Of a stretch of 64,000 bases of DNA, positions 30,384-64,000 are shown piece after piece. The stretch comes from Eledone cirrhosa (Eukaryota). The stretch covers positions 115,754,001 to 115,818,000 of the forward strand of contig OZ024742.1 of the NCBI GenBank assembly GCA_964016885.1, read 5' to 3'. The notes below the pieces were generated by a model, which had not been told where the DNA came from, did no database searches, and saw only the letters and a list, made by a program, of their open reading frames with translations. How positions within the stretch are numbered: position 1 is the first letter of the stretch; each line of letters opens with the position of its first letter. The translations under genes and the position numbers were made by a program.

Positions 30384-30774
30384 TATATTAATAAAAGGAA
30401 TTCCAACTTTGTCTGATTTAGTCGTTTTATTTACAATCCTTTAAAATTCATAATGGTATTAGAATGAAATAGTATGGTAGAATATTAAATGTTAAGTGTT
30501 AATTGAACAACTACTTTCATGCTTTCGCAATCTTCAGGTTCATAATGTGTGGTGACAGTCAAGTTTGCAATTTTCAACTGTTGAAAATTGCAAACTTGAT
30601 TGTCACCACACATTATGAACCTGAAGATTACGAAAGCATGAAAGTACTTGTTCAATTAACACTTAACATTTAATATTCTACCATACTATTTCATTCTAAT
30701 ACCATTATAAGTTTTAAAGGATTGTAAATAAAACGAGTAAATCAGACAAAGATGGAATTCCTTTTATTAATATA
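30384..30774. repeat. Near-perfect palindrome (195-bp arms, 1-nt spacer at 30579), probably inverted Penelope-like 3' ends
   Basis: Arms are reverse complements with roughly 7 mismatches; each carries a CTGAAGA..GAAA hammerhead-like motif and an outward-facing AATAAA. Confidence 0.9.
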
Positions 30775-36835: not shown

Positions 36836-37046
<211 letters not shown>

Positions 37047-37289
37047 TATGCTTTATTTATTAACCACAAGGGTTTAGATAAAGTTGACATTAAGGACAGT
37101 ACATGACAATACAGGGCGGTACAAATGGGCATTTCTGTGTGTAAAAAAAACAGAGGTGTAACAAATAAAATAACAATGAAAAATTCCCCAATAGTGGGGA
37201 GACTTCCGATGGACATTTGTGGAGAAAGCCCATTAAAGGGCCACAGTGACCCTGACCAGCAGGGCATGTGCCCTCTCCAAGTTTTCGAC

Positions 37290-40200
37290 CTTTAATTTAC
37301 AGACACATACTCAGATTCATACTTGCTTCTCTCATCCATCTCTCAACAAAATGCTGGGAAGAGAGCACTTCCCTCTGCACCCTGATTTTCCTTTTCAAAT
37401 GAAATTTGAAAATGTTAATCAGGGCATCACAGGAGAGGTAAGTGCTCGTTTTCAGCCCTTTCAAACGGGTCCAGCATACTATCTATTTCGCCATGGCCAC
37501 CAGACAGATAAAAACTGGCTGCCATTCCCGGCTAAAGGAAGAGGGTGGGGAAATCCTCACGATGGACTCAGCTGATAGCTGGATCCGTCCTACACGTGAC
37601 AGCAGGTGTTCGACATAAACCCACAAGTCAGCAATGATCGGACACTGGACGAGTGCGTGCAGGACGGTTTCGTAACCCTGCGCGCATTTCGGAAATGCAA
37701 GGCTGACGGCACCTCCATGCCTGTAGAGTTTATCCCGAACTGGCAAAGCTCCCCGGTAGCACTGCCAGGTCAGGGATTTCTGGAAGTTGTCCATAGGCCC
37801 CGGCCTGAAAGTCCTTCCGAAGAGATTGGCTAGTTGATTTTCGTCGACGCCTAGAGTTTCTCCAAGTACGTCGTCGCTCTTCCCTCCACTAATGCTCTAT
37901 AGAACGCCAAGCTGGAGTTTCCACCGATCACATTGCCCGATTGGTCGGATGCTGTGAGCGCCTGAAGACATTCCAGTCTCCAAGCGCTCCCTCTCGGTCT
38001 TCGCTTGACCCAGAACTGCAGCTCCATCAAGGAGACTAGCTGGGGAAAGACGTGTCTAGAAAAAGGCGACCACACCTGATCACCGTCGAGGAAGAGGTGG
38101 AGATGTCGTAGCCTGAGCGCGTGTCTGCGCATCATCAGCCACGGCATGCCCAGCTCTCTACGTGGGGTGTGTTGACAGCAGAGGACCGCCTGACCATCGG
38201 AGCGCGTCCCTTCCACAAAAAGCGAATAAGTAAACGCTCCAGCGCAGTCAGGCGGGGCTGCTTAGGATAAGGTACGACGGTAAGGCGGTAGTAGATGACG
38301 GACGCGATGTACGCGTTAGCCACCTCCGCTCGACCTTTCAGGGATAGCTTCCTCTCGGCCCATTTCTGGGTGAGAGAAGCCACCCTGCACGACAGCTCGT
38401 CCCAGTTTTTGTCCATCTGGAGGTCCGGACCGAACCAGACCCCTAGCAATTTAACCGGTCCGTCCGTCAAGCGCCCGACAACGTTGTTGGACGGCATGGA
38501 TCTGCCTCTCCAGGTGCCGACCTGCAGGCCCACTGACTTTTCCTGGTTGATCATTGCTCCTGTCACCGCTTCGTATTCTCTTAGTGTAGTGCCGATCGCC
38601 TCGATGTGTTTGGCGTTCGACACCACTACGGTGACATCGTCCGCATATGCTGACACGGATCTTCCGCATCCTAGTTCGCGCGGGACCCTGCTCAACTTCT
38701 CCAGTTTGTGCAGTAATAGCTTGAGAGTCAATACGTACAAGAGGTACGAGAGTGGACATCCTTGACGGACCGAGCGCATGAATTTGAACGGTTCCGAAAG
38801 GTAACCGTTCACTCTCACCACAGAGCAGATGTCGCTGTGCATGGCAGCGATCCAGCCTTTGAAGACGGGCCCAAAGCCAGCCGCCCACAGGACTGCCGCT
38901 AGTTAACGATGGTCAACCCTATCGAAAGCTTTCGACTGATCTAAATTGATCAAGGACTCGCCCGTGCCAGGTTCTCTAGCTACCCTCTCTACGATGTATC
39001 GCATGAGGTGGAGGTTGTCGTGGATGGATCTGTCGGGAATGGGGCACGTCTGCGCCTCTCCCACCAGACCACAAACGCAAGCACCAACCTCTTTGCTAGC
39101 ACCTTGCCCAAAATCTTGAACTCTGTGTTTAGCAGAGTTATGGGCCTGAAATTATCTATGTTATCCCCCTTGTTCGGATACATTCTCAGCAGCGCCACAG
39201 CTCCTCGGCTCACAATGCTGGGAATTCTCCCGTTCTCTTGCCAGTTGCAGTAGACGTCCGCCAAGAGGCCTCCGACAAGTCTGGCATCTGTACGTGAAGT
39301 TCATAGGGCAGAACATCCAAACCTGTCGATTTACCCCTTTGGCAGCCAGTCATCGCCTCCCGTACTTCAGCGGCTGTTATCGGCTTTTCGCAACACTCTG
39401 CCTCAGCGGCCGAGAGCCGCGGCAGTCCGTCGAGGTAGACACTAAAGTCCATCCCTCGATCCGGCCCGCCGCTGGCCCCGAACAGCTGTGCGAAGTGTCG
39501 CTGAAAAGCTTCACACATTTGCCCGGGATCGAGTAGAATGCGCCCGTCGTGGTCCGCCAAAGACGGATCGCGGTTTTGTTGCCACGACGCGCCTCCTCTA
39601 CTCGGACCCATTGAACGGCTTTCGTCCCCTCGTGTCTGAGAGCACGCACCCTAGCTCTGACAACGCAGCCTTCGTGCTTTGCATTGAAGAATTGGTAAAG
39701 GGCCAATTTCGCCACAAGTACGTCGGTCGCGTTGCGTTTGCTAGCGCCTCGACTAATTTTCTAACTAATTCTCCCTCTGCTCTATTTTTCGCTATTGCTA
39801 AAGCCTTACTAAAACTAATGGACTCTATTTTAATTGCTCTTTTCAGAGCAAACCACCACTTGTTGTTGATGATGGACCCCTCAACGGCCGCTTAACTAGT
39901 TCGCTAATCCCGTTTCTGTAGGCCTTGCGCACTGGTAAGGACGCGTTTAGCTTCCAGTAGGTCCTCGTCTAAGAAGTCTATCTAAATCAAGCACACATAT
40001 CACGAATTTGTGGTCCGTGTAGCTGACTATCTTGAATTGTTGACAGCCTTTGCTAGACCTATCTATTTCCATACAAAATACTCTATCTAGATATGATCTT
40101 GATGACCCTATGCAAATTGTCCAAGTCCACATTGGCACATTCGGGAAATCCAATCGGTACCTGTCAGACAGTTCAAAACGCTTGAGCAGGTTGGTGAGAC

Positions 40201-40690
40201 TCTTGCACCCTCCTCCCCTATCCACTAATCCCACACAGTCCCAGCGTGCATCTAAGATCCCGTTCCAGTCGCCCACTAACACTAAAGAGCGAGATGTTCC
40301 AAGAAAGGTCTCCAGACGCCGGAATAAATCAGGCCGCTCTGCTCCTGTCGGGGCATAGACGGCCACTAAACTGAAAGGTTGCCCGTCTCCGCTGGTTACG
40401 TCCAGCACCACCAACTTACCTTCTGGGTCCAGGAAGATGGCCCGTATGGCAAGATCCAAACCTCTCCGTAAAAGCACAGCAACTCCTCCCCCGATCCCGG
40501 ACGGCTGGGAGATGCGTACACACTGTAGCCGCCGAATATCGGTCCGAAGACCCGTGCTTCGGAGATTCTGGTCTCGCTGATGGCCACTACATATATGTTT
40601 AGTGAACTGAGGTCATTGAGCAGGTAGCCCTGCTTCCAATACGACCCCAAGCCGCGCGCGTTTATGCTGCCTATTCTGAGTGAGGTTATG
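37290..40690 (-). pseudogene. E1 ORF2: AP endonuclease plus reverse transcriptase, frameshifted
   Basis: LRIGSINARG, ISET, LVAVYAPT, GDWN, SYLDRVF, TDHK, NFRPITLLNTEFKIL, DQSKAFDRV, SVRQGCPLS, AYADDVT, LLGVWFG, PKCAQGYETVLHALVQC. Confidence 0.93.
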
Positions 40691-40723
40691 TTGAAATGGA
40701 GTAGAGAAGATGGGAAAGACCAC

Positions 40724-42622
40724 TTACCTTACTTCTCGTTGAGGAAGGACGGTTTATCCATCCTTTTCACTGCTTGTGGCCTCCTCAGGAAGGATGTCCT
40801 TATAAATCCTCCTGGAGAGTGCTTGTCGGAAGTCTCCGATGTCTTTGGGGAATTTTTGTTTTAGTGTCATGTACGTTTTCTGTGTGATGAGAGTGATTTG
40901 TATGTGTGGAGGTGGTGTGAACTTTTGGGTTGTTGTGTAGTCTTGTTCTGTGATGTTAGTCTTCAGTTGGATGTAGTGTAATAATTGGTTGTTGTTCAAA
41001 ATTAATGCTGTGTAGTGTGGTTGTTTTGTTTTGTTTGCGTTTGTTGTGGGTTCGTTTCTGTTTCGGCTTTTGGTGACTTTGTGGTGTAGGTGATGATGAT
41101 GCTGTTGGTGTTTGGGGTGATGGGGTTGGTGATGCTCGTGTGGATCGTGGCATATCTGTCCTAACTTTTTTGTTTGATACTTTATTTGTTTCCCTCTGTA
41201 TTTTGTTTTTGGAGGGGGAAGGAAGAGAATTGTTTTCTTTTTTCCTGATACCGTTTCCCACTCCTCGCGTCACAATCTGACTCCAGTTCTGTTAGGCCGG
41301 GGAGGCGAAAATCCTCGACAGGTGTTAGTTTTGGTTGTGGCGTGGTGTATGGTGTAGGCGCTGGTGCTAGTTCTGAAGCGTTGGGTGGTGGTGGTGTTGG
41401 TTTTGCTACTGTTGCTGGGGTTGTTGCTGTTACAGTTGCTTCTGTTGTTGCTGCTACAGTTGTTGCTGCCATCTCTGCTGCTGGTGGTGTTGATGGTTGA
41501 GTCACTGGGATGGGTAGGAGAGGTGGCCTCAATCTTTTAGCCTGAGGGCAGAAAGCCCTTAGGTGGCTTCCTTCACCACAAACGACACACCTAGGCCTTC
41601 TGCCCTCGACAATTACGGTGAGGTGGCTGCAGTCAGTGAGGTCTATTACCTCTGGGATCTCCTCAATGCTTTTTTTTGTCCGCTTGAGATCAGGAGCTCC
41701 ATCCCAGATCCGGACCAGTTCTTCTGCTTTTCTTTCGCTATTTCGATTATCTTGGTGTTGGCTTCGATGCCGGCGAGGACGGCCGCTATTAGCCAGGGAA
41801 TTTCGATGGCCGGTGGAACGTAGGTGACCATGATTTTTATGAGTCTCTGGTCACAATAGCTTGGGACGAGTGTGAAGTCGTCACTTCTTAATGGGGCCAT
41901 GGAGTGTTCTCTAGCCTCCTGTGGTGTTTCAAAAAACACGTCCGCGGTTCAATCCTTCTGCCCACGTTTAATGTGGGACTTTTTAGCCCACACATGTCCC
42001 AAAGCTTTTTGGATTTGAGACTCGGATCCTCTTTCCACTCTGCGCGATTTTAAATTAATTGTTCGATAAGACACGGTGCATAGGCGCCGATGCTCCATGT
42101 TATTAGGTGGGGGTGAGGCTGACCCTGTACCCATCTTTCTTTACCATTTTGTTTGCCTTCTTCCTGAGTTACCGTAAATGCTTCGCACTGTTTTGCTACT
42201 CTGGCAAAATCGGGATGGTTTTCTTAATGTCATTGTTGCTGTTGTTGTTATCGTTATTTTTGTTATTATTAATTTTAGTTTCAGTTGTGGTGGTGGTGGC
42301 GTCAGTGGTGTTCGGTGTGGAAGAGTTCATTTTGGTTGAATTCATTTCGATATCACGAGTTAATTTATTTTTTCTTTTATTTCTGTTGTCACGATGGTGG
42401 TGGAGGTGGGGGTTGTCGCGGTGGTGGTGGTGGTTTGGCTTTAACACCTGCAGTCATTGGTAATGGCGGGAAATGAATGTGTGCCTGAGAAAAATTTAAA
42501 ATATTGCTACTGCTTATATTTTTAGTGATGGCAAACGTAGTAATATTTACAATGGTGTTGTCGGTGTTAGGTGTTAGTTCGTGAGGAAGGCTGTCAGCTT
42601 CGTGTGGCTGTGAGTCATCCAT
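40724..42622 (-). pseudogene. E1 ORF1: gag-like nucleic-acid-binding protein with CCHC zinc knuckle, frameshifted
   Basis: Low-complexity T/N/P N-terminus, core homologous to E2/E4 ORF1, CVVCGEGSHLRAFC at ~41548-41589, terminus ...REVR-TAA. Confidence 0.8.
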
Positions 42623-43146
42623 ATTTTTTTCAAAGAAAGTTTTTTTTAATAATTATAAAAGTTAAAATGTTGGGCTCAAAGCCCCACTTTTTGAGTGTCC
42701 TTTTCGGAAAACAATGTATGTGCACTTATATACAGTTAACAATAACAATTTTACGTAAATGGCAATTTTAAACAAACGAAAACTACAAACCTTTGCGGAG
42801 CTCACGATGATACGATTTACTACGTAGGTCGCCAATAATAATGATAATAATAATAATAATAATAATAATGATTTTATTTATTAGCCACAAGGGCCGACAT
42901 GTAGGGGACAATACAAAAACAGGGACAGTGGGGATTACAATAAGGTCGAGTAAAAGTGCACAATGGCAAGACTGATTTAACAATGAATATATAAAATATA
43001 AAATAAACTATGCATAAATATAACAAAATAAATTCCCCGTTAGGGTGTGGACGACCCTGGGGTGACTCGGGTACCCCACCAATCCTGAACCACCCTTCAC
43101 TTCTAGGGAACCCAGGGAGAGCACCCCTCTACTCAAATTAGCTAGC

Positions 43147-45985
43147 CTATAGGCGCATGGTCAGAGTAGGCCCATTCACACGAGCCATTCTCGCCACATT
43201 CACCCACCTTTTAGCAAATGTACTGGGGGGCAGCACCTCTCTCTCCACCATCACATTCCTTTCCATGTGAAACTTGAAGAAGTTGATGAGGGATTGGCCG
43301 AAGAGAAAAGTGTCTGTCTTCACTCCTTTTAACCTGGTCCACCATATAATCTCTTTCCCAACTGCCACCAGTCAGAGGAAAATTTCCTGAACTAAGGAAG
43401 GTGGTGGGATGATCTTCACTATGGAATCAGCCGATAGCCGGATTCGTTCCACACGCGACAGTAGCTGTTCCACATAACTCCACAAGCCAGTAATGCACAG
43501 ACATTGGACAAGTGCGTGCAGAACGGTTTCGTCAGTCTGTGCGTATCTTGGGCAGGTCCGTCTGTCAGCACTTCCCTACCTGTAGAGTTTATCCCGAACC
43601 GGCAGAGTCCCCCGGTAGCACTGCCAAGCGAGGGATTTCTGGAAATTGTCCATCGTCCCCGGCTCAAAAGTCCTCCGGTACAGACAGGTCAGTTCGACTT
43701 CGTCGAGTCCCAAAGATTCTCCGAGTGCGTCATCGCACTTGCCCACCACTGATCCTTAATAGAACTCGAGAGTGGAAGTTCCACTGATTGCATTGCCCGC
43801 TTAACGCATGTCTGCGCATCATTAGCTACGGCATGCCCAGCCCTCCGCGTAGAGGGTGCTGGCAGCAGATGGAACGCCTTACCAACGAAACTTGTCCCCT
43901 CCACAAGATTTTGAAGAGGAGCCGTTCTAACTTGACGAGGCGCGGACGGGGTCAAGGCACGACGGTCAGGCGGTAGTAGATGACGAACGTGATGTACGCA
44001 TTCGCCACCTCCACGCGACCTTTCAGTGATAACTTCCTCTCAGCCCATTTTTGGGTGAGACTGGCTACTCTGCTCGTTACCTCGTCCCAATTCTTTTCCA
44101 CCTGGAGGTCTGGTCCGAACCAAACCCCGAGCAACTTTACCGGTCCGTCCGTCCAGCGCCCCACGACGCTGTTGGACGACATGGGATTGCCTCTCCAGGT
44201 TCCGAGCTGCAAGCCCACCGACTTTTCCGGGTTAAGTTTGACTCCTGTCAACCTTTCATATTCCTTCAATAGGGTGCCGACAAGCTCGATTTCTGAGGTG
44301 TTCGACACCGTCATGGTGATGTGGTCCGAATAAGCCGGCACCGCCTTTCCACGTCCCGGTTAGAGCGGGATGCCCTGAAACAGCTCCAGCTTCTGCAGTA
44401 AAGGCTCGAGAGTAAATACGTACAGAAGGGAAGAGAGAGGGCACCCTTGACGTACCGATCGGGAGAGCCGAAATGGTTCCGGGAGGTGGCCATTAACCTT
44501 GACCACCGAGCGTGTGCCGCTGTGCATTGCAGCGATCCAGCTTCTGAAGACTGGGCCGAAGTCAGCTGCTTTGAGGACAAACTCCAGATACCGATGGTCG
44601 ACCCTATCGAATGCTTTCGAATGATCTAAATTGATCAGTGCCCCACCGAAGCCAGGTTTACACCCTGGCCTCTCTATGATGTATCGCATGAGGTGGAGAT
44701 TGTCATTTACGGACCTGGCTGCGATTGCGCCTTCCCAACGAGATCCTCAACGACAAGTGCCAATCTCTTTGCTAACACCTTGGCCAAAATGTTAAACTCA
44801 CACATCCGCTTGGAATCGCTTATCTCGTGTCCGTCACGGTTCGCCAAAGACCGAATTTTGGTTTTATTACCACGCTGCGCCTCCGCCACGCGGGCCCATC
44901 GAACAGCTTTGTTTCCCTCGTTTCTCAGCGCACGCGCCTTAGCTCTGACAATGCAACCTTCGTGTTTCGCATTGAAGAAATGGTCTAATGCCATTCTCGC
45001 CGCTAGCACGTCAGTTGCAATGCCACTACAAATAGCCTCGTCTAACTTATATACCAGCTCCCCCTCCTTTCTATTTTTCTCTATTGCTAGTTCTTTGCTG
45101 AAATCTATCGAAGTTACTCTAATCTCTCTTTTGAGAGCCTCCCACCATCTGTCGTTGATGATCCCCCCCTGTCAACTTTTGCTTAACTAAATTGTTGACG
45201 CTGTCCCTGTAAGCCTTACGTGCCGGAAATGACATGTTCAGCTTCCAGTAACACGGTCCTTACCTACGCGTTTTATCTAGGTCAACCGTACAGATCATAA
45301 ATTTGTGAACTGAATAGGCGACCGTTTTGAAAGGTGGGCAGCCCACACTATTTCCATCTATTTTCCTAATGAAGACCCTGTCGATATACGATCGAGATGA
45401 CACCATTCGGTTGGTTCTTGTCCATACTGGCACATTGGGGAAATCTAGTCGATACTCGTCAGACAGTTGGAACTGGCTGAGTAGGTACTTGAGGCTTTTG
45501 CACCACCCTCTCCTATCTGCTACTCCCACACAATCCCAGCGTGCGTCTAAGATGCCATTCCAATCCACGGCTAAGAGTAAAGGGCGAGACGTACCCAGAA
45601 AGTTCTCCAGGCGCCTAAAGAAATCCAGTCGTCCGGCATCTGTAGGGGCGTAGACGACCAGCTGTCTAAAGGCACCACCTTCGCTACTCCTCACATCCAA
45701 GACCACCAACTTACCGTCCGGGTCCCGGAAGATCGACCTTACCTCGAGATCCAGTCCTTTCCTAAACAGCACTGCCACCCCACCCCACATTCCCAGCCTG
45801 CTAACAGATGTGAAGATGTGATACTCGTCGAATATGGGGGCTAGTGCGCGCGTGTCGGAAATTCTGGTCTCGCTGACGGCAATCACTTTCATTTTTAACG
45901 ACCTGTCGTCGTTGAGCAGGCGATCCTGCTTCCAGGGTGACCCCAGGCCGCAAACATTTAAACTTCCTACTCTTAATATGGCCAT
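43147..45985 (-). pseudogene. E2 ORF2: AP endonuclease plus reverse transcriptase
   Basis: MAILRVGSLNVCG, VSET, VYAPT, SYIDRVF, DHSKAFDRVDH, VRQGCPLS; an internal deletion near 44800 joins KRMCE to FNILAKVLA. Confidence 0.9.
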
Positions 45986-46018
45986 TTTGGTAAGCTAAGA
46001 GAGATAGGGAAGGTTTAC

Positions 46019-47900
46019 TTACCTCCCGGGGTCTTGTGAAGGTCGGGTGATTCGACCTCTATGTTTGGTGCGATTTATTTTGGGAACCTCTTTAAAAGTC
46101 TCGATGTGGGTTCCCACGCCTTCAGGAAAGCTCTCTCGAATTTCTTTGAAGGAATTGAGTGATATTCGGACTAGAAGCAAATCTTCTGGCACGCAAAATG
46201 TGCTCATTTCAAAAATCTCCCCCTCTGTTTGAATGTCCTCACTTCGTTCTAAGGGGACCATCAGTTTATCGTTGGCCCTTCTGACAAGCACGAAGTTTTT
46301 AACATTTTGTTGGTGTGCTTTTATTTGTTTTCGTTTTGGTGACCGTGGTGGTGATTGTTTTGGTGGTCTTGTTTCGGGTATGTCTGTGTTTGCTGTAGGT
46401 GTGGTGTCTGCAATTTTAGGTATTTGTGTGTTTATTTGTACTTGTGTTTGTTTAGGTTGTTTGCGTATCGGGGATTGTGGAGGTGGTGTCTATGTTGCTG
46501 TTGGTGCTGATGTTATTGGGGAAGTGTTTGCTGTATTTTTTGTTGTGTATATGTTTGTGTATTATGGGGCTTTTTTTTTGTGAGTTTTCTCTGTTTTTTT
46601 GGCACTTTTGGGTTTTCCTTCATCTTCGCTGCTGGAAGACAAAGGGTCTGTGGCTATGAGTGTCTCTGTGTCTGTCTGTGCGTTTAGTGTTTTGTCTATG
46701 TGTATAATTAGGGTGATAGGGGGAGTGGGAGAGCTTTCCCCTTGGATTGGTTTTGGTGTTGGTGGTGATCCGGCTGTTTTAGATGTTGTTGTCCGTGGCT
46801 TTGTTGGTGTTGTTTTTGGTGGTGCTGGTGATGCAGCTTTCCGTGCTGACACTGGCGTTGGCAACAAAGGAGGTTTGCGACCCCTGCATGTTTGCGCTGA
46901 GGGCAGAAGGCTTGAAGATGCGTTGCTTCCCCGCAGACGAAGCAGCGTGGCCTTCTTCCGTCAATGATTAGTTGGATTGTTGTCCCGTCCTGCAGGCGGA
47001 CAAAATCAGGGATGTTGTTCATGTCCTCCGGTTTCATTTGGAGAAGCATGTCCAAATCCATTCCGGACCAGTCCTCTCTCTCTGTCCTTTTGATATCCAA
47101 GAGGTTAGTGTCTGCCACCTCCTCGATTACGCATCCTAGCAGCCACCATATGTTCATTCCTGGTGGGATGCTGGGAATGTGGACCTTTACTGTCCTTTTA
47201 CCCATGTAGGACGGATGCATGATAATGCGTTCCGTTCTGCAGGGGGTCACCGATTTCTGAATAGCGAGGGCCTCGGTTTTGAACATTACCAAGATGGTAC
47301 CGAACTGTTTGCCTCTTGCTTTATACTCTATGTTACTTCCGATGTACTCCAAAGCAGCCTCGACCTCTGCTTGGTTGGCAAGTTCCACTTTTCGTGTCTG
47401 CACCGAAATGCATCGAAAGTACACCGTCCTCCTTTGCATGGCCGCTATTGCCTCGTCCGGATGGTCAGGTTTGCCCAGGACTTCTCCCGTTTAATTAGCC
47501 TCCACGCTTGGGCTAACTGTTCGTCTTTATCGCTAATATCAATATCAATATTCAATAAGCGCTTTGTTTTTGCTGCTGCTGAAGCAAATATGGTGCTTCC
47601 GATGCTCTTGTTGTTGGTGTTGTCATTCTTGCTGTTGTTATTGGTGTTGTTGTTGTTGATGCTGTTGCCACCGCCATCCGTGTTTACATTGAAACTGTCG
47701 GTGTAATTGTCGTTATTGCTCTGAGTTATTGTTGTTGTGGTGGTGGTGGTGTTGGTGGTGGCGGTGGTGGTGGTGATGTCGTTTTCAGATGATACTGCTG
47801 CTATCATAGAAGGTTGTGATGGTAGCTTTTGAGCTTTGTCTTCACATTCAGTAGAGTGGACGACAGGCATGACTGTAGCCGACAGTCGTGGTGAAACCAA
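46019..47900 (-). pseudogene. E2 ORF1 with CCHC zinc knuckle
   Basis: IIDGRRPRCFVCGEATHLQAFC (CX2CX4HX4C); T/N-rich N-terminus; terminates QDPGR-TAA. Confidence 0.85.
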
Positions 47901-48371
47901 CAGTGGCTGCCGTTAATCTTTTGACCTGAACGTTGTTTACCGTTTCAAGATCGAACATTTCCATATTTTGTTTTGGTGGGGAAGCGATATTTTTTCGAAT
48001 TTTTTTTTAAATAAATCTGAATATTCGGGCTTAAAGCCCGAATATTGAGAGGTATCCCTTTCTTTAAATCAAGATGTGTACCTTAAGTTTCGTTAACGAC
48101 AAGAAAATACGAAAAATGACACTTTAAAACATCTTAAAGTTACGAACCTTTTTCCCCCGCAGATTTCTACTGTCTTCACACATGTGCGTCCTTAATAATA
48201 ATAATAATAATAATATTACTACTACTACTACTAGCCGGTATCTGGAAAATATAGGATTTAATACCTCTGAGCGGTCGTTGGAAAATTATTTTCTCGTCTT
48301 TCAAGGATTTTCGTCATATTTTATAAGCTGTTTTTATAGTACTTCTGCGCTTCAGCGCTTTCGTTATATTC

Positions 48372-49813: not shown

Positions 49814-49864
<51 letters not shown>

Positions 49865-49869
<5 letters not shown>

Positions 49870-50076
49870 ACGTATGGATACACCGAACATTTATTATAGT
49901 GCTCGGTGTGTTTGTAAACAAACATCCCGTATTAAGCCGTAGTGTCCAGTAACCATCGTTGCTCGTTTGTTCAACACTGACAAAAGAACGATGTATTCGT
50001 TTCAAGCCTATTAGCTATCGTAAGCAACGTATACCTTCCTGCCAAATTGTTGAACATATATACTTACCTTATGCAT
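49865..50076 (+). repeat. Extra direct copy of the internal part of the adjacent foldback
   Basis: Close match to 50288-50500. Confidence 0.85.
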
Positions 50077-50141
50077 ATTAACGGCTGAGTAGCCCGATTT
50101 GCATATCGAGTGGGTTAATCGTTCGGGCGCACCGAAAACGA

Positions 50142-50788
50142 TAAACGGAAAAATGAAATGAAATTTCATTTCCCACTCTTAGTACGGCTGTTACTTAAAT
50201 ATAAGTATGTACACGTACATACATTTATGTATACAGACGTACAGTAGTATGTATATATTTATATACATATATACACACATATATATATATGTACGTATGG
50301 ATTCACCGAACATTTATTATAATGCTCGGTGTGTTTGTAAACAAACATCCCGTATTAAGCCGTAGTGTCCAGCAACCAACGCTGCTCGTTTGTTCAACAC
50401 TGACAAAAGAACGCTGTACTAGTTTCAAGCTTATTAGCTATCATCAGCAACGTATACCTTCCAGCCAGATTGTTGAACGTATATACTTACCTTATGCATA
50501 AGCTTGAAACTAGTACAGCGTTCCGTTGTCAGTGTTGAAAAAACGAGCAACGATGGTTGCTGGACACTACGGCTTAATACGGTATGTTTGTTTACAAACA
50601 CACCGAGCATTATAATACATGTTCGGTGAATCAATACGTATATATATATGTGTGTGCATGTATGTATATATTTATACATACTACTGTACGTCTGTATACA
50701 TATATGTATGTACGTGTACATACTTATATTTAAGTAACAGCCGTACTAAGAGTGGGAAATGAAATTTCGTTTCATATTCTTCCGTTTA
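50142..50788. mobile_element. Foldback element with ~290-bp inverted arms and ~63-nt spacer
   Basis: 50142-50434 is the reverse complement of 50498-50788; same family as 19805-20210. Confidence 0.88.
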
Positions 50789-54681: not shown

Positions 54682-54850
54682 TTGTTTCTACTTTTGGCAC
54701 AAGGCCAGCAAATACCCAGTGCATTACTGGTACTTAATTTTATTGAACCCGTAAGGATGAAAGGCAAAGTTAACCTCGGCGGGATTTGAACTCAGAATGG
54801 CAAGGCTCTAACTCTATGCGTCAAAGCATGGTGTCCGATCCTCTACCGAT
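54682..54850 (-). mobile_element. tRNA-SINE copy
   Basis: Collinear with 25151-25332. Confidence 0.85.
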
Positions 54851-54879
54851 TATATAATAATAATAATAATAATAATAAT

Positions 54880-55542
54880 TTCTTTATTAACCACAAGGGT
54901 TTACATAAAGTAGACATTAAGGACAATACAGGACAATGCAGGGCAATACATTGTTGTTGTTGTTGTTATCGTTATTTTACTTATTATTAATTTTAGTTTC
55001 AGTTGTGGTGGTGGTGGCGTCAGTGGTGTTCGGTGTGGAAGAGTTCATTTCGACATCACGAGTTAATTTATTTTTTTCTTTTGTTTCTGTTGTTGCGGTG
55101 GTGGTTGGGGTGGTGGTTGTCGCGGTGGTGGTGGTGGTGGTGGCGGCTTTAACACCTGCAGTCATTGGTAATGGCGGGAAATGAATGTCTGCCTGAGACA
55201 AATTTAAAATATTGCTACTGCTTAAATGTTTAGTGTTGGCAAACGTTGTAATATTTACAATGGTAGTGTCGGTGTGAGATGTTAGTTTGTGAGGAAGTCT
55301 CTCAGCTGCTTGGTGCAGAGGTGAATCAGCCATGATTTGTGCAAAAACATTTTTTGATAATCATAAAAGTTAAAATTTTGGGTACAAGGCCCCATTTTTT
55401 TTGGATGTCCTTTTCGAAAAACAATGTATGTGCGCTTATATACAGTTAACAATAAAATTTTCCATAAATGGCATTTTTTAACAAACAGAAACAACAAACC
55501 TTTGCGGAGCTCACGATGATACGATTTACTACGTAGGTCGCC
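54880..55542 (-). mobile_element. Mini-Tx1 (E3): intact 5' ~590 bp joined to intact 3' ~70 bp
   Basis: 54951-55542 matches the E1 5' end (~42233-42833); 54880-54950 matches the E1/E4 3' terminus; (AAT)n at 54855-54879 and 55543-55566. Confidence 0.9.
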
Positions 55543-55812
55543 AATAATAATAATAATAATAATAATGTTTTCTTTATTAACCACAAGGGTTTACATAAAG
55601 TAGTAATTAAGGACAGTACAGGACAATACAGGATAGTACAAATGGGCATTTCTGCGTGTAAAAAAACAGATGATGTGATAAAAAAATAACAATGTAAAAT
55701 TCCCCAATAGCGGGGAGACTTCCGAAGGACATTTGTGGAGAAAGCCCATTAAAAGGCCACAGTGACCCTAACCACCAGGGCAAGTGAGCTCTCTCAATTT
55801 TCGACCTTTAAT

Positions 55813-58800
55813 TTACAGACACATACTCAGAGTAGGCCCATTCACTTGGGCCATACTTGCTTCTCTCACCCATCTTTCAATAAAATGCTGGGAAGAGAGC
55901 ACTTCCCTCTCTACCCTGATTTTCCTTTCCAAATGAAATTTGAAAACGTTAATCAAGGCATCACCGAAGAGGTAAATGCTCGTCTTCAGCCCTTTCAAAC
56001 GTGTCCACCATACTATCTCTTTCGCCATGGCCACCAGACAGATAAATACTACCTGCCCTTCCCGGCTAAAGGAAGAGGGCGGGGCAATCCTCACGATGGA
56101 CTCCGTCACAGATGGATCCGTCCTACACGTGACTGCAGGTGTTCGACATAAACCCACCAGTGAGCAATGCTCGGACAGTGGACGAGTGCGTGCAGGACGG
56201 TTTCGTCTCTCTGCGCGCATCTCGGACATGCTCGGCTGACGGCACCTCCGTGCCTGTAGAGTTTATCCCGAACTGGCAAAGCTCCCCGGTAGCACTGCCA
56301 GGCCAGGGATTTCTGGAAGTTGTCCATAGGCCCCGGCCCGAAAGTCCTTCCGAAGAGATTGGCTAGTTGATTTTCGTCGACGCCTAGAGTTTCTCCAAGT
56401 ACGTCGTCGTTCTTCCCCTACACTAATCCTCTATAGAACGCCAAGGTGGAGTTTCCACCGATCACATTGCCCGATTGGTCGAGGGCTGTGAGCGCCTGAA
56501 GACATTCTAGTCTCCAAGCGCTCCCTCTCGGTTTTTGATTGACCCAGGTATGCAGCTGCGTCAAGGAGACGAGCTGGGGAAAGACGTGTCTAGCAAAGGC
56601 GACCACACCTGATCACCGTCGAGGAAGAGGTGAAGAAGTCGTAGCCTGAGCGCGTGTCTGCGCATCATCAGCCACGGCCTGTCCAGCCCTCCACGTAGGG
56701 TGTGTTGAAAGCAGAGGACCGCCTGACGATCGGAGCGCGTCCCTTCCACAAAAAGGGAAAGAGCAAACGCTCCAGCGCAGTTAGGCCTGGCTTAGGACAA
56801 GGTACGACGGTCAGGCGGTAGTAGATGACGGACGCGATGTACGCGTTAGCCACCTCCTATCGACCTTTCAAGGATAGCTTCCTCTCCGCCCTTTTCTGGG
56901 TGAGAGAAGCCACCCTGCTCGTCACCTCGTCCCAGTTTTTGTCCGTCTGGACGCTTTCAACGTCTCCACTTTGTGCAGTAATGGCTCGAGAGTCAATACG
57001 TACAAGAGGGACGAGAGGGGACATCCTTGGCGGACCGAGCGCATGATGTTGAACGGTTCCGAAAGGTGACCGTTCACTCTCACCACGGAGCAGATGTCGC
57101 AGTGCATGGCAGCGATCCAGCCTCTTAAGACGGGCCCAAAGCCAGCCGCCCCCAGGACTGCCGCTAGGTAACGATGGTCGACCCTATCGTATGCTTTCGG
57201 CTGATCTAAATTGATCAAGGACCCACCCGTGCCAGGTTCCCTAGTTACCCTCTCTACGATGTATCGCATGAGGTAGAGGTTGTCGTGGATGGATCTGTCG
57301 GGAATGGCGCATGTCTGCGCCTCTCCCACCTGACCACCAATGACAAGCACCAATCTCTTTGCTAGCACCTTGGCCAAAATCTTAAACTCTGTGTTTAGCA
57401 GGCTTATGGGCCTGAACTTATCTATATTACCTCCTTGTTCGGATCCTTTCTCAGCAGCGCCACAGCTCCTCGTTCTGTTTCCAGTTTCAGTAGACGTCCG
57501 CCAAGAGGCCTCCGAACAAGTCTGGCATCTGTACGTAAAGTTCATAGGGCAGACCATCCAAACCAGGCGATTTACCCCTTTTGCAGCCAGTCATTGCATC
57601 CCGTACTTCAGCGGCTGTTATCGGCTTTTCGTAACACTCCGCCTCAGTGGTCGAGAGCCGCAGCAGTCCGTCGAGGTAGACACTAAAGTCCATCCCTCGA
57701 CCCGGCCCGCCCATGCGCCCGAACAGCTGTGCGAAGTGTCGCTGAAAAGCTTCACACATTTGCCCGGGAACGAGTAGCATGTGCCCGTCCTGGTCCACCG
57801 AAGACCAGATCGTGGATTTGTTGCTACGACCCACCTCCTCCACTCGGACCCATTGAACGGCTTTCGTCCCCTCGTGTCTGAGAGCAGGCACCCTAGCTCT
57901 GACAACGCAGCCTTCGTGCTTTGAATTGAAGAATTGGTCAAGGGCCAATTTCGCCGCAAGTACGTCGGTCGCGATGCCTTTGCTAAGCGCTTCGACTAAT
58001 TTTCTAACTAATTCTCCCTCTGCTCTAATTTTCTCTACTGCTAAAGCCTTACTAAACCTAATGGATTCTAGTCTAATTGCTCTTTTCAGAACAAACCACC
58101 ACTTGTTTTTGACGATAGCCCCCGTCAACGCTCGCTTAACTAGTTCACTAATCCGGTCTCTGTAGGCCTTGCGTGCTGGTAAGGACGCGTTTAGCTTCCA
58201 GTAGCCGGGTCCTCGTCTATGAAGCCTATCTAATCAAGCACACAGATCACGAATTTGTAGTCCGTGTAGCTGACTAACTTGAATTGGGGACAGCCTATGC
58301 TAGACCTATCTTTTTCCCTACAAAATACTCTATCTAGATATGATCTGGATGACCCTATGCGATTTGTCCAAGTCCACATTGGCACATTCGGGAAATCCAA
58401 TCGGTACCTGTCAGAGAGTTCAAAACACCTGAGCAGATCGGTGTGACTCTTGCACCCTCCTCCCACACAGTCGCAGCGTGCATCTAAGATCCCGTTCCAG
58501 TCGCCCACTAACACTAAAGAGCGGGACGTTCCAAGAAAGGTCTTCAGACGCCGGACGAAATCAGGCCGCTTGTCACGTCCAGCACCACCAACTTACCTTC
58601 TGGATCCAGGAAGATGGCCCGTATGGCGAGATCCAAACCTCTCAAAAAAAGCACATATACTCCTCCCCCCGATCCCGGACGGCTGGGAGATGTATACATC
58701 GTAGCCGCCGAAGATCGGTGCGAAGTCCCGTGCTTCGGAGATTCTGGTCTCGCTGATGGCCACTACATCTATGTTTAGTGACCTGAGGTCGTTCAACAGG

Positions 58801-58865
58801 TGCCCCTGCTTCCATGACGACCCCAAGCCACGCGCATTTATGCTGCCTATTCTGAGTGACGTCAT
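55813..58865 (-). pseudogene. E4 ORF2: AP endonuclease plus reverse transcriptase, frameshifted, with a deletion near 56950 removing the YADD region
   Basis: MTSLRIGSINARG, ISET, GDWN, KSPGLDGLPYELY, FRPISLLNTEFKIL, DQPKAYDRVDH, VRQGCPLS, CPRCAQRDETVLHALVHC. Confidence 0.92.
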
Positions 58866-59529
58866 GTTGAAATGGAGTGGAAAAGATGGGAAGGACCACT
58901 TACCTTACTTCTCGTAGATGAAGGACGGTTTCTCCATCCCTTTTCACTTGATCGTCTGGTGAAGGTACCGTTGAATCGTCCCTTCGGCTGGTCGTCGGCT
59001 CTTCTATGAGGATGTCCAAATATACTCTCCGGTTGAGAGTCCCTCCTAGGTCTCTGAAATCACTATCTGCGTTGGGGAATTTCGCTTTAATGTGTGTGTG
59101 TTGTTTCTATGCTATTCTTACCAGTCTTATGTTCGTTGGTGTTTTCATTGGTGCTGGTATTATGTAGACGTGCTGTGAAATGTCTGTGTGTATTTATTGC
59201 CGTGCATTTGTTTTTCTTTGGGGTGGGGTGTGGTTCTACTAGTTTCTTGTCGTTGTTGTTGGGTGTGTGTGTTTTGTTGTTGTGTTGGTGCTTGTGGTGG
59301 TGGTGTTGAAGGTGTTGTTGTTTGCGGTGGGGTTGTCGCCGGTGGTGATGGTGGTGCTAGTGTGAGTGGTGATGGTGTTGGTGGTGTTGCTGCTGTAAGT
59401 CTCTTTGCAGTAGCCTTTACCCTTTTTTTCATTTCTTTCCTCCATTTTCGAAGGCGACGATGCGCTGCTTCTGCGTTTGTGCCTTCTTACAACCTTTTGC
59501 CATCCCTCTCCCACATCACACTTCATGTC

Positions 59530-60399
59530 CTATTCTGCGAGACCGGGGAGGGGCATCAGATCCACTCTTTCACTTGTTGTTGTCGGTGATGTTTGCAGTG
59601 GAGTCTCTGTTGCAGCTGCATTTGGTATTACTGTTGTTGTTGTTAATACTTCCACTGCTGCTGCTGTTCTTGATTTCCCTGGTGTGGGTATGGGTGCCAC
59701 GGACCTATCGTTCCCGGTTGTCGCTTGTCCTGTTGCTGGTAGCAGTGGAGCCGGTTTCGGAAGGAGGTGGGTTTTCTCCTTTCTCAGGGTCTTCACATTG
59801 CAGAAGGCCCTGAGGTGAGTCTTCGATCCACAGCGAAAGCATTTCGGACGTTTGCCCTCAATAATTATGGGCAGTTGAGTGCCGTTATCGAAGTCTATCA
59901 CATCCGGGATAGTTTCGATGCACTCCTGGTTGGTTTGGATTAACATCTCAATGGAGGTGCCGACCCAATCTTCTCTTACATTTTTCTGTACTTGCAGTAC
60001 AGTTGTTTTGTCCTCGATTCCGACGAGGACAGACGCGACCAGCAATGAATGGGCCATCCCTGGGTGGACGTGGGTCAGTTTGACCCTCACAATTTTTTGC
60101 CCGCAGTAGGAGAGCACCAACACCATTTCCTCGCTCCTTAGGGTCACTAAGGATTGAGCCTTTGCCTCCAGGGGTGTGGCAAAAAGCACGTCTACGGTGG
60201 CATATTTCTTGCCTCGGATGATATGTGTTTTCCGCTGCCACACAGACCCTAAGGCGTTTTGTATTTCAGCCTCTGTGGCTCTTTCAACCCTACGGGATTT
60301 TTTGCTTACTGTACGGTATGTGACCGTACAGTGCTGTTGGGTTTCGAAAAATGTTTCGGCTGCCTTGCAGATTGCTGGGTGTCCGGTTTTCGTCACCAT
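59530..60399 (-). pseudogene. E4 ORF1 core with CCHC zinc knuckle (full ORF1 extends ~58900-60750)
   Basis: IIIEGKRPKCFRCGSKTHLRAFC; homologous to the E1/E2 ORF1 core. Confidence 0.85.
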
Positions 60400-61243
60400 C
60401 TTCTTTGCTTCCTGTAATTCCTCATTTGTTATGAGGATGGTTTCCAGGTTCTTTGCGATACCTGCAAACGAAATTTGTTTTTCTTTGCTGTTGTTGTTGT
60501 TATTGTTGTTGTCGTCAGAGCTGCTGTTACTTTTGTTGTTGCTACTGGTACTACGACTACTGCCGCCGCCGTTGTTGCTGTGGTTGTTGCTGTTGTTGCT
60601 ACTGGCGATTCTGTTGTTGCTGCTAATGCTGTTGTTGTTTATGCTGCTGCTGATGCTGTTGCGGCTGCTACTGTTGATTTCCTTGTCACTGTTGCTGCTG
60701 CTGCTGTTATTATGGCTGCTACTGCATGACGTCAGACGAATGAAATGGGTTTCTCTATTTACCGCACATATTATTCGTCGTTGTTGTCGTCGTCGTGAAA
60801 TGTTCCTCGGTTTGCACGTGCTCGAGGAAACTATCAGAAACTATATTTTTCTTTTTCTTTACTGGCGTCGCTTGCGAAAGAGAAGGGAGGGAGAGATACA
60901 CATTTATAGAAGGGAGGGAGCGAGAGAATCTTCTCTCTGGTGTAGTGACGATTGAGGAAGAGAGGACGGAATGAGTGGGAGTGACTTGTGAAAATTCTCT
61001 TTTGTAGCCATGTTTTTTTTGGTTTAAAATACATATTGAGCACCAAACCCCAATAAGCGGTTATTTAAACCCGAAGGGCCAACTAACGGGCAGAAAGACC
61101 CCTCTCGCGAGAAGGAGGGTGTTTTTGTCTACAATCTAGTTGAAGTTTTAAACAATTTACAATTGGTATTGCGCTTAAAATTTACAATACCTTACAGAGC
61201 CGAGCCTCCGTCAACCATGGCATTCAATAATAATAATAATAAT

Positions 61244-63040
61244 GTTTCCATGTGACTCTTTATCACCGCTTTTATTCTGCATCGCACGTATACCATTAAG
61301 TAAAATGCTCAATGAAATAAAACATGGATATAAAGTCTATGACAAAACCATTAATCACTTGTTCTACATGGATGACCTGAAACTATTTGCAAAAGCTGAT
61401 GAACAATTGGAAGGTCTATTATCCATTGTGAAACAGTTCATTGATGACATTAAAATGGAGTTTTGACTAGATAAATGCGCCAAAGCAACGTTCACCAGAG
61501 GAAAGCTGCTGAAGAGTTCAGACATTAATCTTGATCGGGGGAATGTGATAAGAGAACTTGATCAAGAAAAGACTTACAAATATCTAGGTGTTTGGGGAGG
61601 AGACGGAATCAAGCACTCGACAATGAGGGAAAGGATAAGGAATGAATGTTCCCGCATAGTAAGAGCAATCTAAAGAACGGAATTGAATGCAAGGAATATG
61701 ATCGATGCCATAAACACGCTTGCCATACCAGTAGTAACCTACAGTTACAATGTCATCAACTGGTCAAGCACAGAGAACCGTAGGCTCGATACAAAAATTC
61801 GAAAATTCTTAACCATGCACCCAATTCATCACCCTAAGGCAGATACAGATAGAATATATCTCCCTAGGAAAGAAGGAGGACGGGGGTTAAAAGATATTGC
61901 GTTGAAAACTGCAACAATTGGATTATCTACATATCTAACGGAATCACATGATTAGATGATCAAACTCGTTTTGAAACACGAAAGCATCAACAGATCATAT
62001 TCCATTACAAAAGATGCACAAAGATACAGTAATGGACTACACATTTCAGAAGTTCCATTTACTGCTGAAATGAAATACACAGAAAAAGCAAAGCAGGTAA
62101 AAGTAACTGCAAAGAAATAACTGCTACAGAAACTGGCTAAGAAATGGCAAGGAAAGCCTCTGTATGGAAAATACTCAGAAAGATCTAACAACCCTGATGT
62201 TGATAAAACCAATCAGTGGTTGGCATCATCTGGACTGAAATCGGAGACTGAAGGACTAATTATATCAGCACAAGATCAGTGTCTACCAAGAAAATAATTA
62301 CCAACACAAAATTACCAAGCCAACATAATAAAAAATGGATGCAACCCATTATGCCGTCTATGTAAAAAACAACCAGAGACCATTGATCATATAATTTCAA
62401 TGTGCAGTCCTATACAGGCGTGACAGAGCTGCACAATATATACATTGGATAATGTGTAAGCATTTTGACCTGCCCCATCAAAAGAATTGGAGGGAGCGTC
62501 AACCACCTCCAGTACTTGAAAAAGATCACATCTCAATCTTGTGGTACTTTAGCATCCAAACAGACCGAAAAATAGATGCAAATCGACCTGATATAATACT
62601 GAAGCACTTTAAAAAGAGGGTATGCCTGCTAATTGATATGTCCGTTCCAATAGACAAGAATGTATCTACCAAAATATTTGAAAAATTGAGTAAGTATAAG
62701 TTCTATCTCCAAGAGATAGAAATTGGAAAAAATGTGAGAACTAAAACGATACCAGTGGTTGTAGGCGCTCTAGGAATGATACCTAAGGGGTCTAATGATT
62801 ACTTATCACAAATCCCAGGGAGCCCGCGTATAGGAGAAATACAAAAGATAGTACTAATGGGAACTGCCCATATACTATGGAAGATTCTGTCAATAAAAGT
62901 ACATGACAAGTCTAGGCCCCTAAAGATGCATATGTGTGTATGTATGTTCTTTCTTGAACATGGCGGACCTTGTTGTGTCTTGAGGTCACTGGTTGTGACT
63001 TGGTGATAACTCGTATGAACATTAAGCAAGATAAATGCAA
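61244..63040 (+). mobile_element. 5'-truncated R4-clade (Dong-like) non-LTR retrotransposon: RT, CCHC and restriction-like endonuclease
   Basis: DSLSPLLFCIA, INHLFYMDDLKLFAK, YKYLG, RIYLPRKEGGRGL, LKSETEGLIISAQDQ, CRLCKKQPETIDHIISMC, RPDII..LLIDMSVP..KLSKY; begins directly after (AAT)6. Confidence 0.9.
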
Positions 63041-63042
63041 CT

Positions 63043-64000
63043 CCATCCCGAACCGGCAGTCCCCCGTGGTAGCACTGTCAAGCGAGGGATTTTTTGGAAA
63101 TGATCCATCGTCCCCGGCTCCTAGATTCTCTGGAACAGACTGATTAGTTCGACTTCGTCGACTCCCAGAGCCTGTCCGAGTGCATCGTCTCACTTACCCA
63201 CCACTAGTCCTCTATAGAACTCGAGAGTGGAAGTTCCACTGACCGCATTGCCCGCCTGGTAGAGGGCAGTGAGTACCTGGCAACATTCCAGATGCCAGTC
63301 ACCCAGTGTCGGTCTCTTATTGACTCAGGACTGCAGCTCAGTCAAAGAATGGAGCTGCGGAAAGGCCCGTCTGACAAACGGCGACCACACCCGTTTCACT
63401 GTTTAGGCAGAATACTTGGAGATGCCGCAGCCTCAGCTCGTGTCTGCGCATCATTATCCACATAATGCCCAGCCCTCCACGTAGAGGGTGCTGGCAGCTA
63501 TGGACCGTCTCACCAGCGGAACCTGACCCCACCACAAGAATTTGAAGAGGATCAGCTCGAAGATGGCGAGTCGAGAACGATGGCATGGGACGACGGTCAG
63601 ACGGTAGTAGATGACGGACGCGATGTATGCGTTCGCCACCTCCGCCCGACCTTTCAGTGATATCTTTCTCGCAGCCCATTTCTGGGTGAGACTGGCTACC
63701 CTGCCTATCACATCGTCCCAATTCGAATCCACTCGAATCAAACCCCGAGGAACTTTACCGGCCCGTCCGTCCACATCCTAACGACGCTGTTGGATGGCAT
63801 GGACTTTCCTCTCCATGTGCCGAGTTGCAAGCCCACCAACTTTTCCGGATTAAATTTTGCTCCCGTCAACTTTTCAGATTCCTCCAATAAGTTGCCGACC
63901 ACCTCGATTTCTGAGGGGTCCGACACAATCACGGTTATATCGTCCACATAAGCCGACACAGGCTTTCCGCGTCCCGGTTCCAGTGGAATGCCCTGCAACA
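63043..64000 (-). mobile_element. Tx1-clade ORF2 segment E5 (E2-like), 3' end missing, continues beyond the window
   Basis: AYVDDITV, GLQLGTWRG, ISLKGRAEVANAYIASVIYYRL; collinear with ~43590-44380. Confidence 0.9.

Follow-up and report, generated by a model that had tools for sequence, protein, structure and literature searches.

An octopod LINE superfamily with a conserved splice-donor signal where ORF1 ends and an ORF2 that may be carried as a retained intron

Across an octopod superfamily of LINE retrotransposons, the end of ORF1 carries a conserved splice-donor signal, which is kept in all 15 lineages that we compared, even where silent sites have drifted down to about 50% identity. Three things are seen directly, namely that this donor is maintained in all three reading frames of ORF1, that it matches the host U1 RNA and that ORF2 ends in TAG|G. 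We lean slightly towards an interpretation in which the donor is spliced to an acceptor that coincides with the ORF2 stop codon or follows it closely, so that the whole of ORF2 would be removed and an ORF1-only mRNA would remain. The wider proposal, that the superfamily carries its reverse transcriptase (RT) gene as a retained intron, with host splicing setting the ratio of ORF1p to ORF2p and with the arrangement kept through frame changes and acceptor turnover across octopods, is one that we regard as evenly poised.

The signal came to light in a 64,000-nt stretch of Eledone cirrhosa DNA (the window), where several decayed LINEs lie on the minus strand. In the element E1, the decayed ORF1 (40724..42622, minus strand, its start taken from a three-frame translation) contains a CCHC knuckle and a low-complexity linker, and its stop codon TAA (40726-40724) overlaps the conserved donor motif AG|GTAAGT (40722..40729, with the GT at 40727-40726). 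A pyrimidine-rich spacer (40690..40721) follows, with CAAC at its end before the ORF2 start codon (40687..40689); in nine lineages this spacer measures 19-39 nt and is 72-81% pyrimidine. The equally decayed ORF2 (37297..40689, stop codon TAA at 37299-37297) encodes APE endonuclease, RT and zf-RVT domains, and downstream of it lie a poly(A) signal, AATAAA (37056..37061), and a TAA/TAG repeat tail. While ORF1 of E1 is broken, the frame ending AGG-TAA is the true ORF1 frame of E1's family, with open stretches of as many as 526 codons (22 of 23 copies with 150 or more open codons). Further donor motifs on the minus strand belong to E4, a member of E1's family (58898..58905), and to E2 of lineage C2 (46017..46024).

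These elements are an octopod superfamily of L1-like, two-ORF APE-RT LINEs, which we take to be Tx1-like. Intact ORF2s measure 1139-1148 aa and have APE, RT and zf-RVT domains (PF03372, PF00078 and PF13966 are matched in intact family copies), and their best solved relative is human L1 ORF2p (E 5e-50). In ORF1 the CCHC motif is visible, with a PF00098 match (E 0.067) that misses the cut-off. Argonauta hians and two Octopus species supply the closest named relatives, and metagenome scans for the element gave nothing at first and then two distant partial loci. Two ORFs, a poly(A) signal and a repeat tail were found, rather than the single gag-pol ORF of an LTR element.

Our searches covered 3.0 Gb of genome. 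A pattern placed on the ORF2 start, blind to the donor, gave 6070 matches and a second pattern of this kind 663; together with 2362 exact unspliced junctions, these pattern matches put the family at no fewer than 9,000 near-full-length copies. From 65 elements with both ends (some loci overlap) we chose 15 natural representatives, one for each of 15 lineages, whose fourfold sites are 49-86% identical and whose tree length is 3.1 changes per site. Splice sites were scored with generic weights rather than host-trained ones.

After AG (GG in one lineage), the donor motif takes the form GTAAGT, GTAGGT or GTGAGT. Among the 211-247 GT sites of spacer, ORF2 and 3' UTR (ORF1 was left out of the ranking), it scores first in 12 lineages, ties for first place in two and comes third in one, whose representative copy has a private change. 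Positions -1G, +1G, +2T, +5G and +6T are kept at family level in 15 of 15 lineages, one representative copy having a private change at +5; for comparison, invariant fourfold sites number 26 of 148 with a G majority and 6 of 54 with a T majority. Based on fourfold-site rates, neutral retention of the five positions would have a probability of about 1e-4, a rough estimate that ignores coding constraint. At +3 and +4 we see A or G only, consistent with U1 wobble, and the positions adjoining the donor vary freely, as does spacer length. Among rarer copies, some depart from the motif at +5 or +6, and the GT itself is lost from several single, decayed copies. U1 of the host has a canonical 5' end, complementary to the E1 site over 8 nt.

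With ORF1 phase set from long open frames and a shared M-E motif, ten lineages have the donor in phase 2, three (C1, C3 and H, where ORF1 ends G-K-stop) have it in phase 1 and two (B and C2, where ORF1 reads through) in phase 0, the phases of small families resting on 1-10 copies each. Its presence in all three frames argues that nucleotides are kept rather than a codon or stop context, and that the frame beyond the joint is of no importance. Stop-codon context or a required C-terminal Arg was rejected as an explanation because the donor persists off the stop. An Argonauta ORF1 ends in P-E-G-K-S, which equals the phase-1 translation of the donor region (judged from the protein only). In family B (L097 and L142-L171; about 600 pattern matches), ORF1 reads through the donor and its TAG overlaps the ATA (A-TAG) that stands in place of the absent ORF2 AUG in 29 of 29 copies; this resembles a stop-start with a non-AUG start, and one family B copy has 1040 open ORF2 codons. 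By eye, the end of E4 ORF1 (window ~58960-58900) shows an H-type ending and then a similar second segment, which suggests that E1's family arose by a short duplication and a frameshift that took the donor from phase 1 to phase 2.

The candidate acceptor lies at the far end of ORF2. Here, 14 of the 15 lineages have TAG as their stop codon, and in 13 of them the next base is G; a run of pyrimidines usually precedes the TAG and a purine-rich stretch often follows. E2 shows this acceptor-like form, common to most lineages, at 43147..43172 (minus strand). Ranked by score, the TAG acceptors come 1, 1, 2, 3, 4, 5, 5, 5, 6, 11, 18, 22, 23 and 42, so the stop-codon AG is within the top 6 of about 265 in nine lineages. 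If the donor is joined to TAG|G, ORF1 stops within three residues in 9 of 15 true frames, as against a short tail in 5 of 30 wrong frames and a background of 0.09 (Fisher p 0.006, from lineages that are not independent and in a test devised post hoc, with the data already seen). These nine short-tail lineages include all three phases and about four separate clades, and between C2 and its sister C1 a one-base phase shift at the donor is matched by a one-base shift of the stop 3.4 kb away. Lineages E and I have the stop in phase 1 and ORF1 now in phase 2, and we read this phase-1 stop as a relic. Long tails (27 to over 70 residues) are predicted in six lineages (A at +7, D1, D2, D4, E and I), and some copies have no stop ahead of the poly(A) site after the distal joint.

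E1's family has changed its ORF2 stop from TAG to TAA, and its top acceptor (rank 1 of 263) is a U-tract plus CAG in the 3' UTR (37135..37160 in E1, minus strand), about 158 nt beyond the stop. This candidate, which is present in both E1 and E4 (where it ends at 55652), would add 20 residues and stop before AATAAA. It could be due to chance, since YAG is also found in the corresponding 3' UTR zone of 5 of the other 14 representatives (one more was not delimited). A weak AG 7 nt past the E1 ORF2 stop (37290..37296, minus strand; rank 31 of 263) is a further candidate acceptor of the family. Against a unique acceptor at the ORF2 stop, two AG columns inside ORF2 score 2.7 and 1.9 versus 1.8. Silent sites at the ORF2 end are conserved to an unexceptional degree (rank 85 of 1136 and 524 of 1140), and retention of TAG is by itself a weak argument, with 25 of 51 twofold G columns doing equally well.

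If the distal joint is used, part of the transcripts would be spliced from the end of ORF1 to the end of ORF2 with removal of ~3.46 kb, in E1's family presumably to the CAG 158 nt downstream or to the AG at +7. The predicted product is an ORF1-only mRNA of ~2.4 kb with the normal poly(A) site, which would supply ORF1p in excess. The unspliced RNA would give rise to ORF2p by reinitiation at its own start and would, by cis preference, be the only RNA copied back.

Genomic copies bearing a donor joint did not emerge. Precise intron removal (SpIRE-like copies) was absent from every pattern searched, and patterns for distal joints gave no match in E1's family, none in six lineages together and none in B, while the four matches in lineage C are point mutants (H was left out of this search). 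Nor did the patterns tried yield an ORF1-only genomic copy. In E1's family, we read all 47 copies with an altered continuation past the donor: 45 have local mutations, one has a ~350-nt deletion not ending at AG and one an apparent inversion. The absence of spliced copies weighs against splicing, given that a spliced RNA would retain the 3' tail and might be copied in trans; it fits strict cis preference and also no splicing at all. At the protein level, a tail derived from the 3' UTR occurs in 0 of 104 ORF1 homologues, and one homologue (P0108) has mid-ORF1 joined to late ORF2, away from the donor. Contigs of unspecified type from four runs were compared with a stretch in which two lineages occur: none of the 15 joints listed, out of 2440, starts at a donor, and some contigs cross donors unspliced. 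Neither observation counts for or against splicing.

The main rival sees the site as bound by U1 snRNP and left unspliced, shielding the RNA from premature poly(A) cleavage in the A-rich ORF1 linker or aiding transcription or export. Suppression of nearby poly(A) sites by U1 is known from HIV-1 and from telescripting, and a role of this kind would account for conservation irrespective of frame, for the perfect pairing with U1 and for spliced copies being wholly absent. AATAAA or ATTAAA does occur within 700 nt upstream of the ORF2 start in 8 of 9 representatives by raw count, and AATAAA arises by chance in A-rich sequence. What binding by U1 leaves unexplained are the in-frame stops just past TAG|G and the matched phase shift of C2, and to our minds it is an unlikely explanation.

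Another rival keeps splicing and moves the acceptor to an AG inside ORF2, for instance TTC-TAT-AG (F-Y-R, codon 936), which would append the C-terminal zinc domain to ORF1 or give a regulatory dead-end RNA. This AG has the highest mean acceptor score, is present in 15 of 15 lineages and shows mild silent-site conservation (rank 34 of 1136). However, it is in frame for phase-2 lineages only, its sequence is explained by conserved residues and E1's family has no such genomic copy, which makes for an improbable scenario.

We are similarly doubtful that the motif is a translation signal for termination and reinitiation, or an inherited accident that merely resembles a donor. It does lie 25-52 nt ahead of the ORF2 start, a place from which SART1 and viruses exert translational coupling (PMC3894237 section 5; PMC10275272), a single ancestor of all lineages could have passed on an accident, and no spliced product came to light. 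Yet the motif persists off the stop codon in five lineages, host 18S rRNA contains no perfect complement to it (G-U-rich matches only), the conserved window is the U1 pairing window, and the rough estimate given above for neutral retention of the five positions speaks against an accident.

The headline of the sequence-only reading was a 52-nt intron fusing ORF1 to ORF2, and what it described in E1 is correct: between the GT start at 40727 and the end of CTCAG at 40676 (minus strand; CTCAG occupies 40676..40680, ORF2 codons 4-5) there are 52 nt, and joining AG to A rebuilds AGA-ATA-GGC in frame with ORF2. The site recurs in E4, and the GT is conserved as reported above. An ORF2 start reading ATA holds for E1 and is a private mutation, ATG being found in 27 of 30 family copies, and the 51-nt version assigned to E2 does have the donor motif, though its in-frame arrangement is no family trait: in five sibling copies of E2 the donor is read in phase 0 of ORF1, and the M/I-E-V-E motif of E2 itself is in phase 1. 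More generally, a mini-intron of 39-66 nt would start with GT, end with AG and, once removed, leave the ORFs joined in frame in E1, in E4 and in 9 of 15 lineages; family B, with its missing AUG, has need of such a fusion, and the length alone is no bar to it as animal introns down to ~30 nt exist (PMC13644364). At ORF2 codon 5, AGR is present in all but one of the 15 lineages (AGR makes up ~55% of Arg codons); as an acceptor this AG scores poorly and is not conserved, ranking 14 of 263 in E1's family and 27 in lineage H, with ranks of 78-214 among ~265 AGs in the other 12 of the 14 lineages.

The fusion is out of frame in five lineages (B, C1, C2, C3 and H), including family B, which would need it most, and a sixth, lineage E, has CGA at codon 5 and no AG; moreover, the CAAC-ATG start is kept inside the supposed intron in most lineages. 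Because an RT shows cis preference by copying its own RNA (PMC5860796), RNA encoding a fused RT would lose the intron on being copied in cis, and intron-less copies would be expected. Their count is 0 against the 2362 exact unspliced junctions (95% bound 0.13%), compared with ~1.8% spliced copies for human L1 (PMC5860796). A longer fused ORF1-ORF2 protein was not seen among 952 candidates, a weak test, nor among 9 matches of near length. As a general mechanism, then, the fusion is largely refuted and we consider it very improbable; the readings favoured by the evidence are those that had been mentioned as its alternatives, a donor for ORF1-only mRNA and a U1 site. An ORF2-only mRNA made through a spacer acceptor was rejected as general, with AG in some lineages only (I, C2).

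Removal of ORF2 by splicing would have its nearest parallel in Ty1/copia elements (Drosophila copia, Arabidopsis EVADE), where a spliced short RNA gives excess structural protein and the unspliced RNA provides enzymes and template (PMC7197481). Alike is the conserved donor at the end of the structural gene; for an acceptor that would remove the enzyme region there is a candidate at the ORF2 stop, which is not the only such AG. In contrast, those are LTR elements with one gag-pol ORF, whereas ours is a two-ORF LINE, whose predicted intron is the whole of ORF2 with its stop as acceptor. The resemblance is a likeness of mechanism, by analogy, and not one of membership.

Among L1-clade elements, human L1 has functional sense-strand splice sites, as seen in SpORF2 and SpIREs, but these splices start in the 5' UTR and remove ORF1 or promoter sequence (PMC2896524, PMC5860796); they leave spliced genomic copies (~1.8%) and are judged harmful to L1 (PMC5860796). 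The octopod LINE differs in having its donor at the ORF1 end, in the predicted removal of ORF2 and in that no spliced copies were found. HAL1 (half-L1) elements are ORF1-only relatives of L1 and exist as genomic non-autonomous elements, whereas for the octopod LINE no ORF1-only genomic copy was found. As in SART1 and L1, whose ORF2 is translated by coupling or reinitiation, ORF2 keeps its own start close behind ORF1, and the A-TAG overlap of family B is akin to UAAUG of SART1 (PMC3894237 section 5), though with ATA as the start; the account of SART1 and L1 ORF junctions in that review describes no splice donor (PMC3894237). Introns in transcripts have been reported for the Neurospora Tad LINE, as cited in PMC1636488, and Tad could be a closer precedent, depending on where its intron lies; in TART the introns are on the antisense strand (PMC1636488). 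In the freely accessible literature covered, no LINE whose ORF2 is removed by a conserved splice turned up, and the main text of an octopus LINE paper (PMC9115989) contains neither 'splic' nor 'intron'.

LINEs produce ORF1p in abundance and ORF2p sparingly, an open problem for which a review section gives translational answers only (PMC3894237). A conserved and selected splice that drops ORF2 would, if true, be a new answer, contrast with human L1, where splicing counts as harmful to the element, and put 9,000 or more near-full-length copies under one host switch. A strong donor could also capture host exons.

ORF2 itself holds further features. Lineages A and H alone have a second perfect AG|GTAAGT, at codon 90 (window 40421-40414 and 58598, minus strand), and in a tectonic-3-like gene model of Octopus sinensis (P0007) a LINE-derived exon ends exactly at this site, which bears on the possible capture of host exons. 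The strongest silent-site conservation of ORF2 is at codons 522-532 and 562-572 (L078 numbering), the arms of a long hairpin predicted within the RT region (codons ~530-572, by estimate roughly window 39100-38975 in E1); its arms show a few one-sided and compensatory changes, and it is possibly a cis element of the unspliced RNA. The lowest folding energy of the ORF2 alignment, -56 kcal/mol, is found elsewhere, at codons ~722-765 (L078 numbering).

Elements of different families stand head to tail with 5.7-5.9 kb spacing and TAA or TATC repeat joints (window 36999-48000 and 54850-64000; also L108-L122), which suggests insertion into each other's tails. The window also contains two long inverted repeats, one with 195-nt arms 1 nt apart (30384-30774) and one with 184-nt arms 63 nt apart (49829-50778), both probably fold-back or MITE-like elements.
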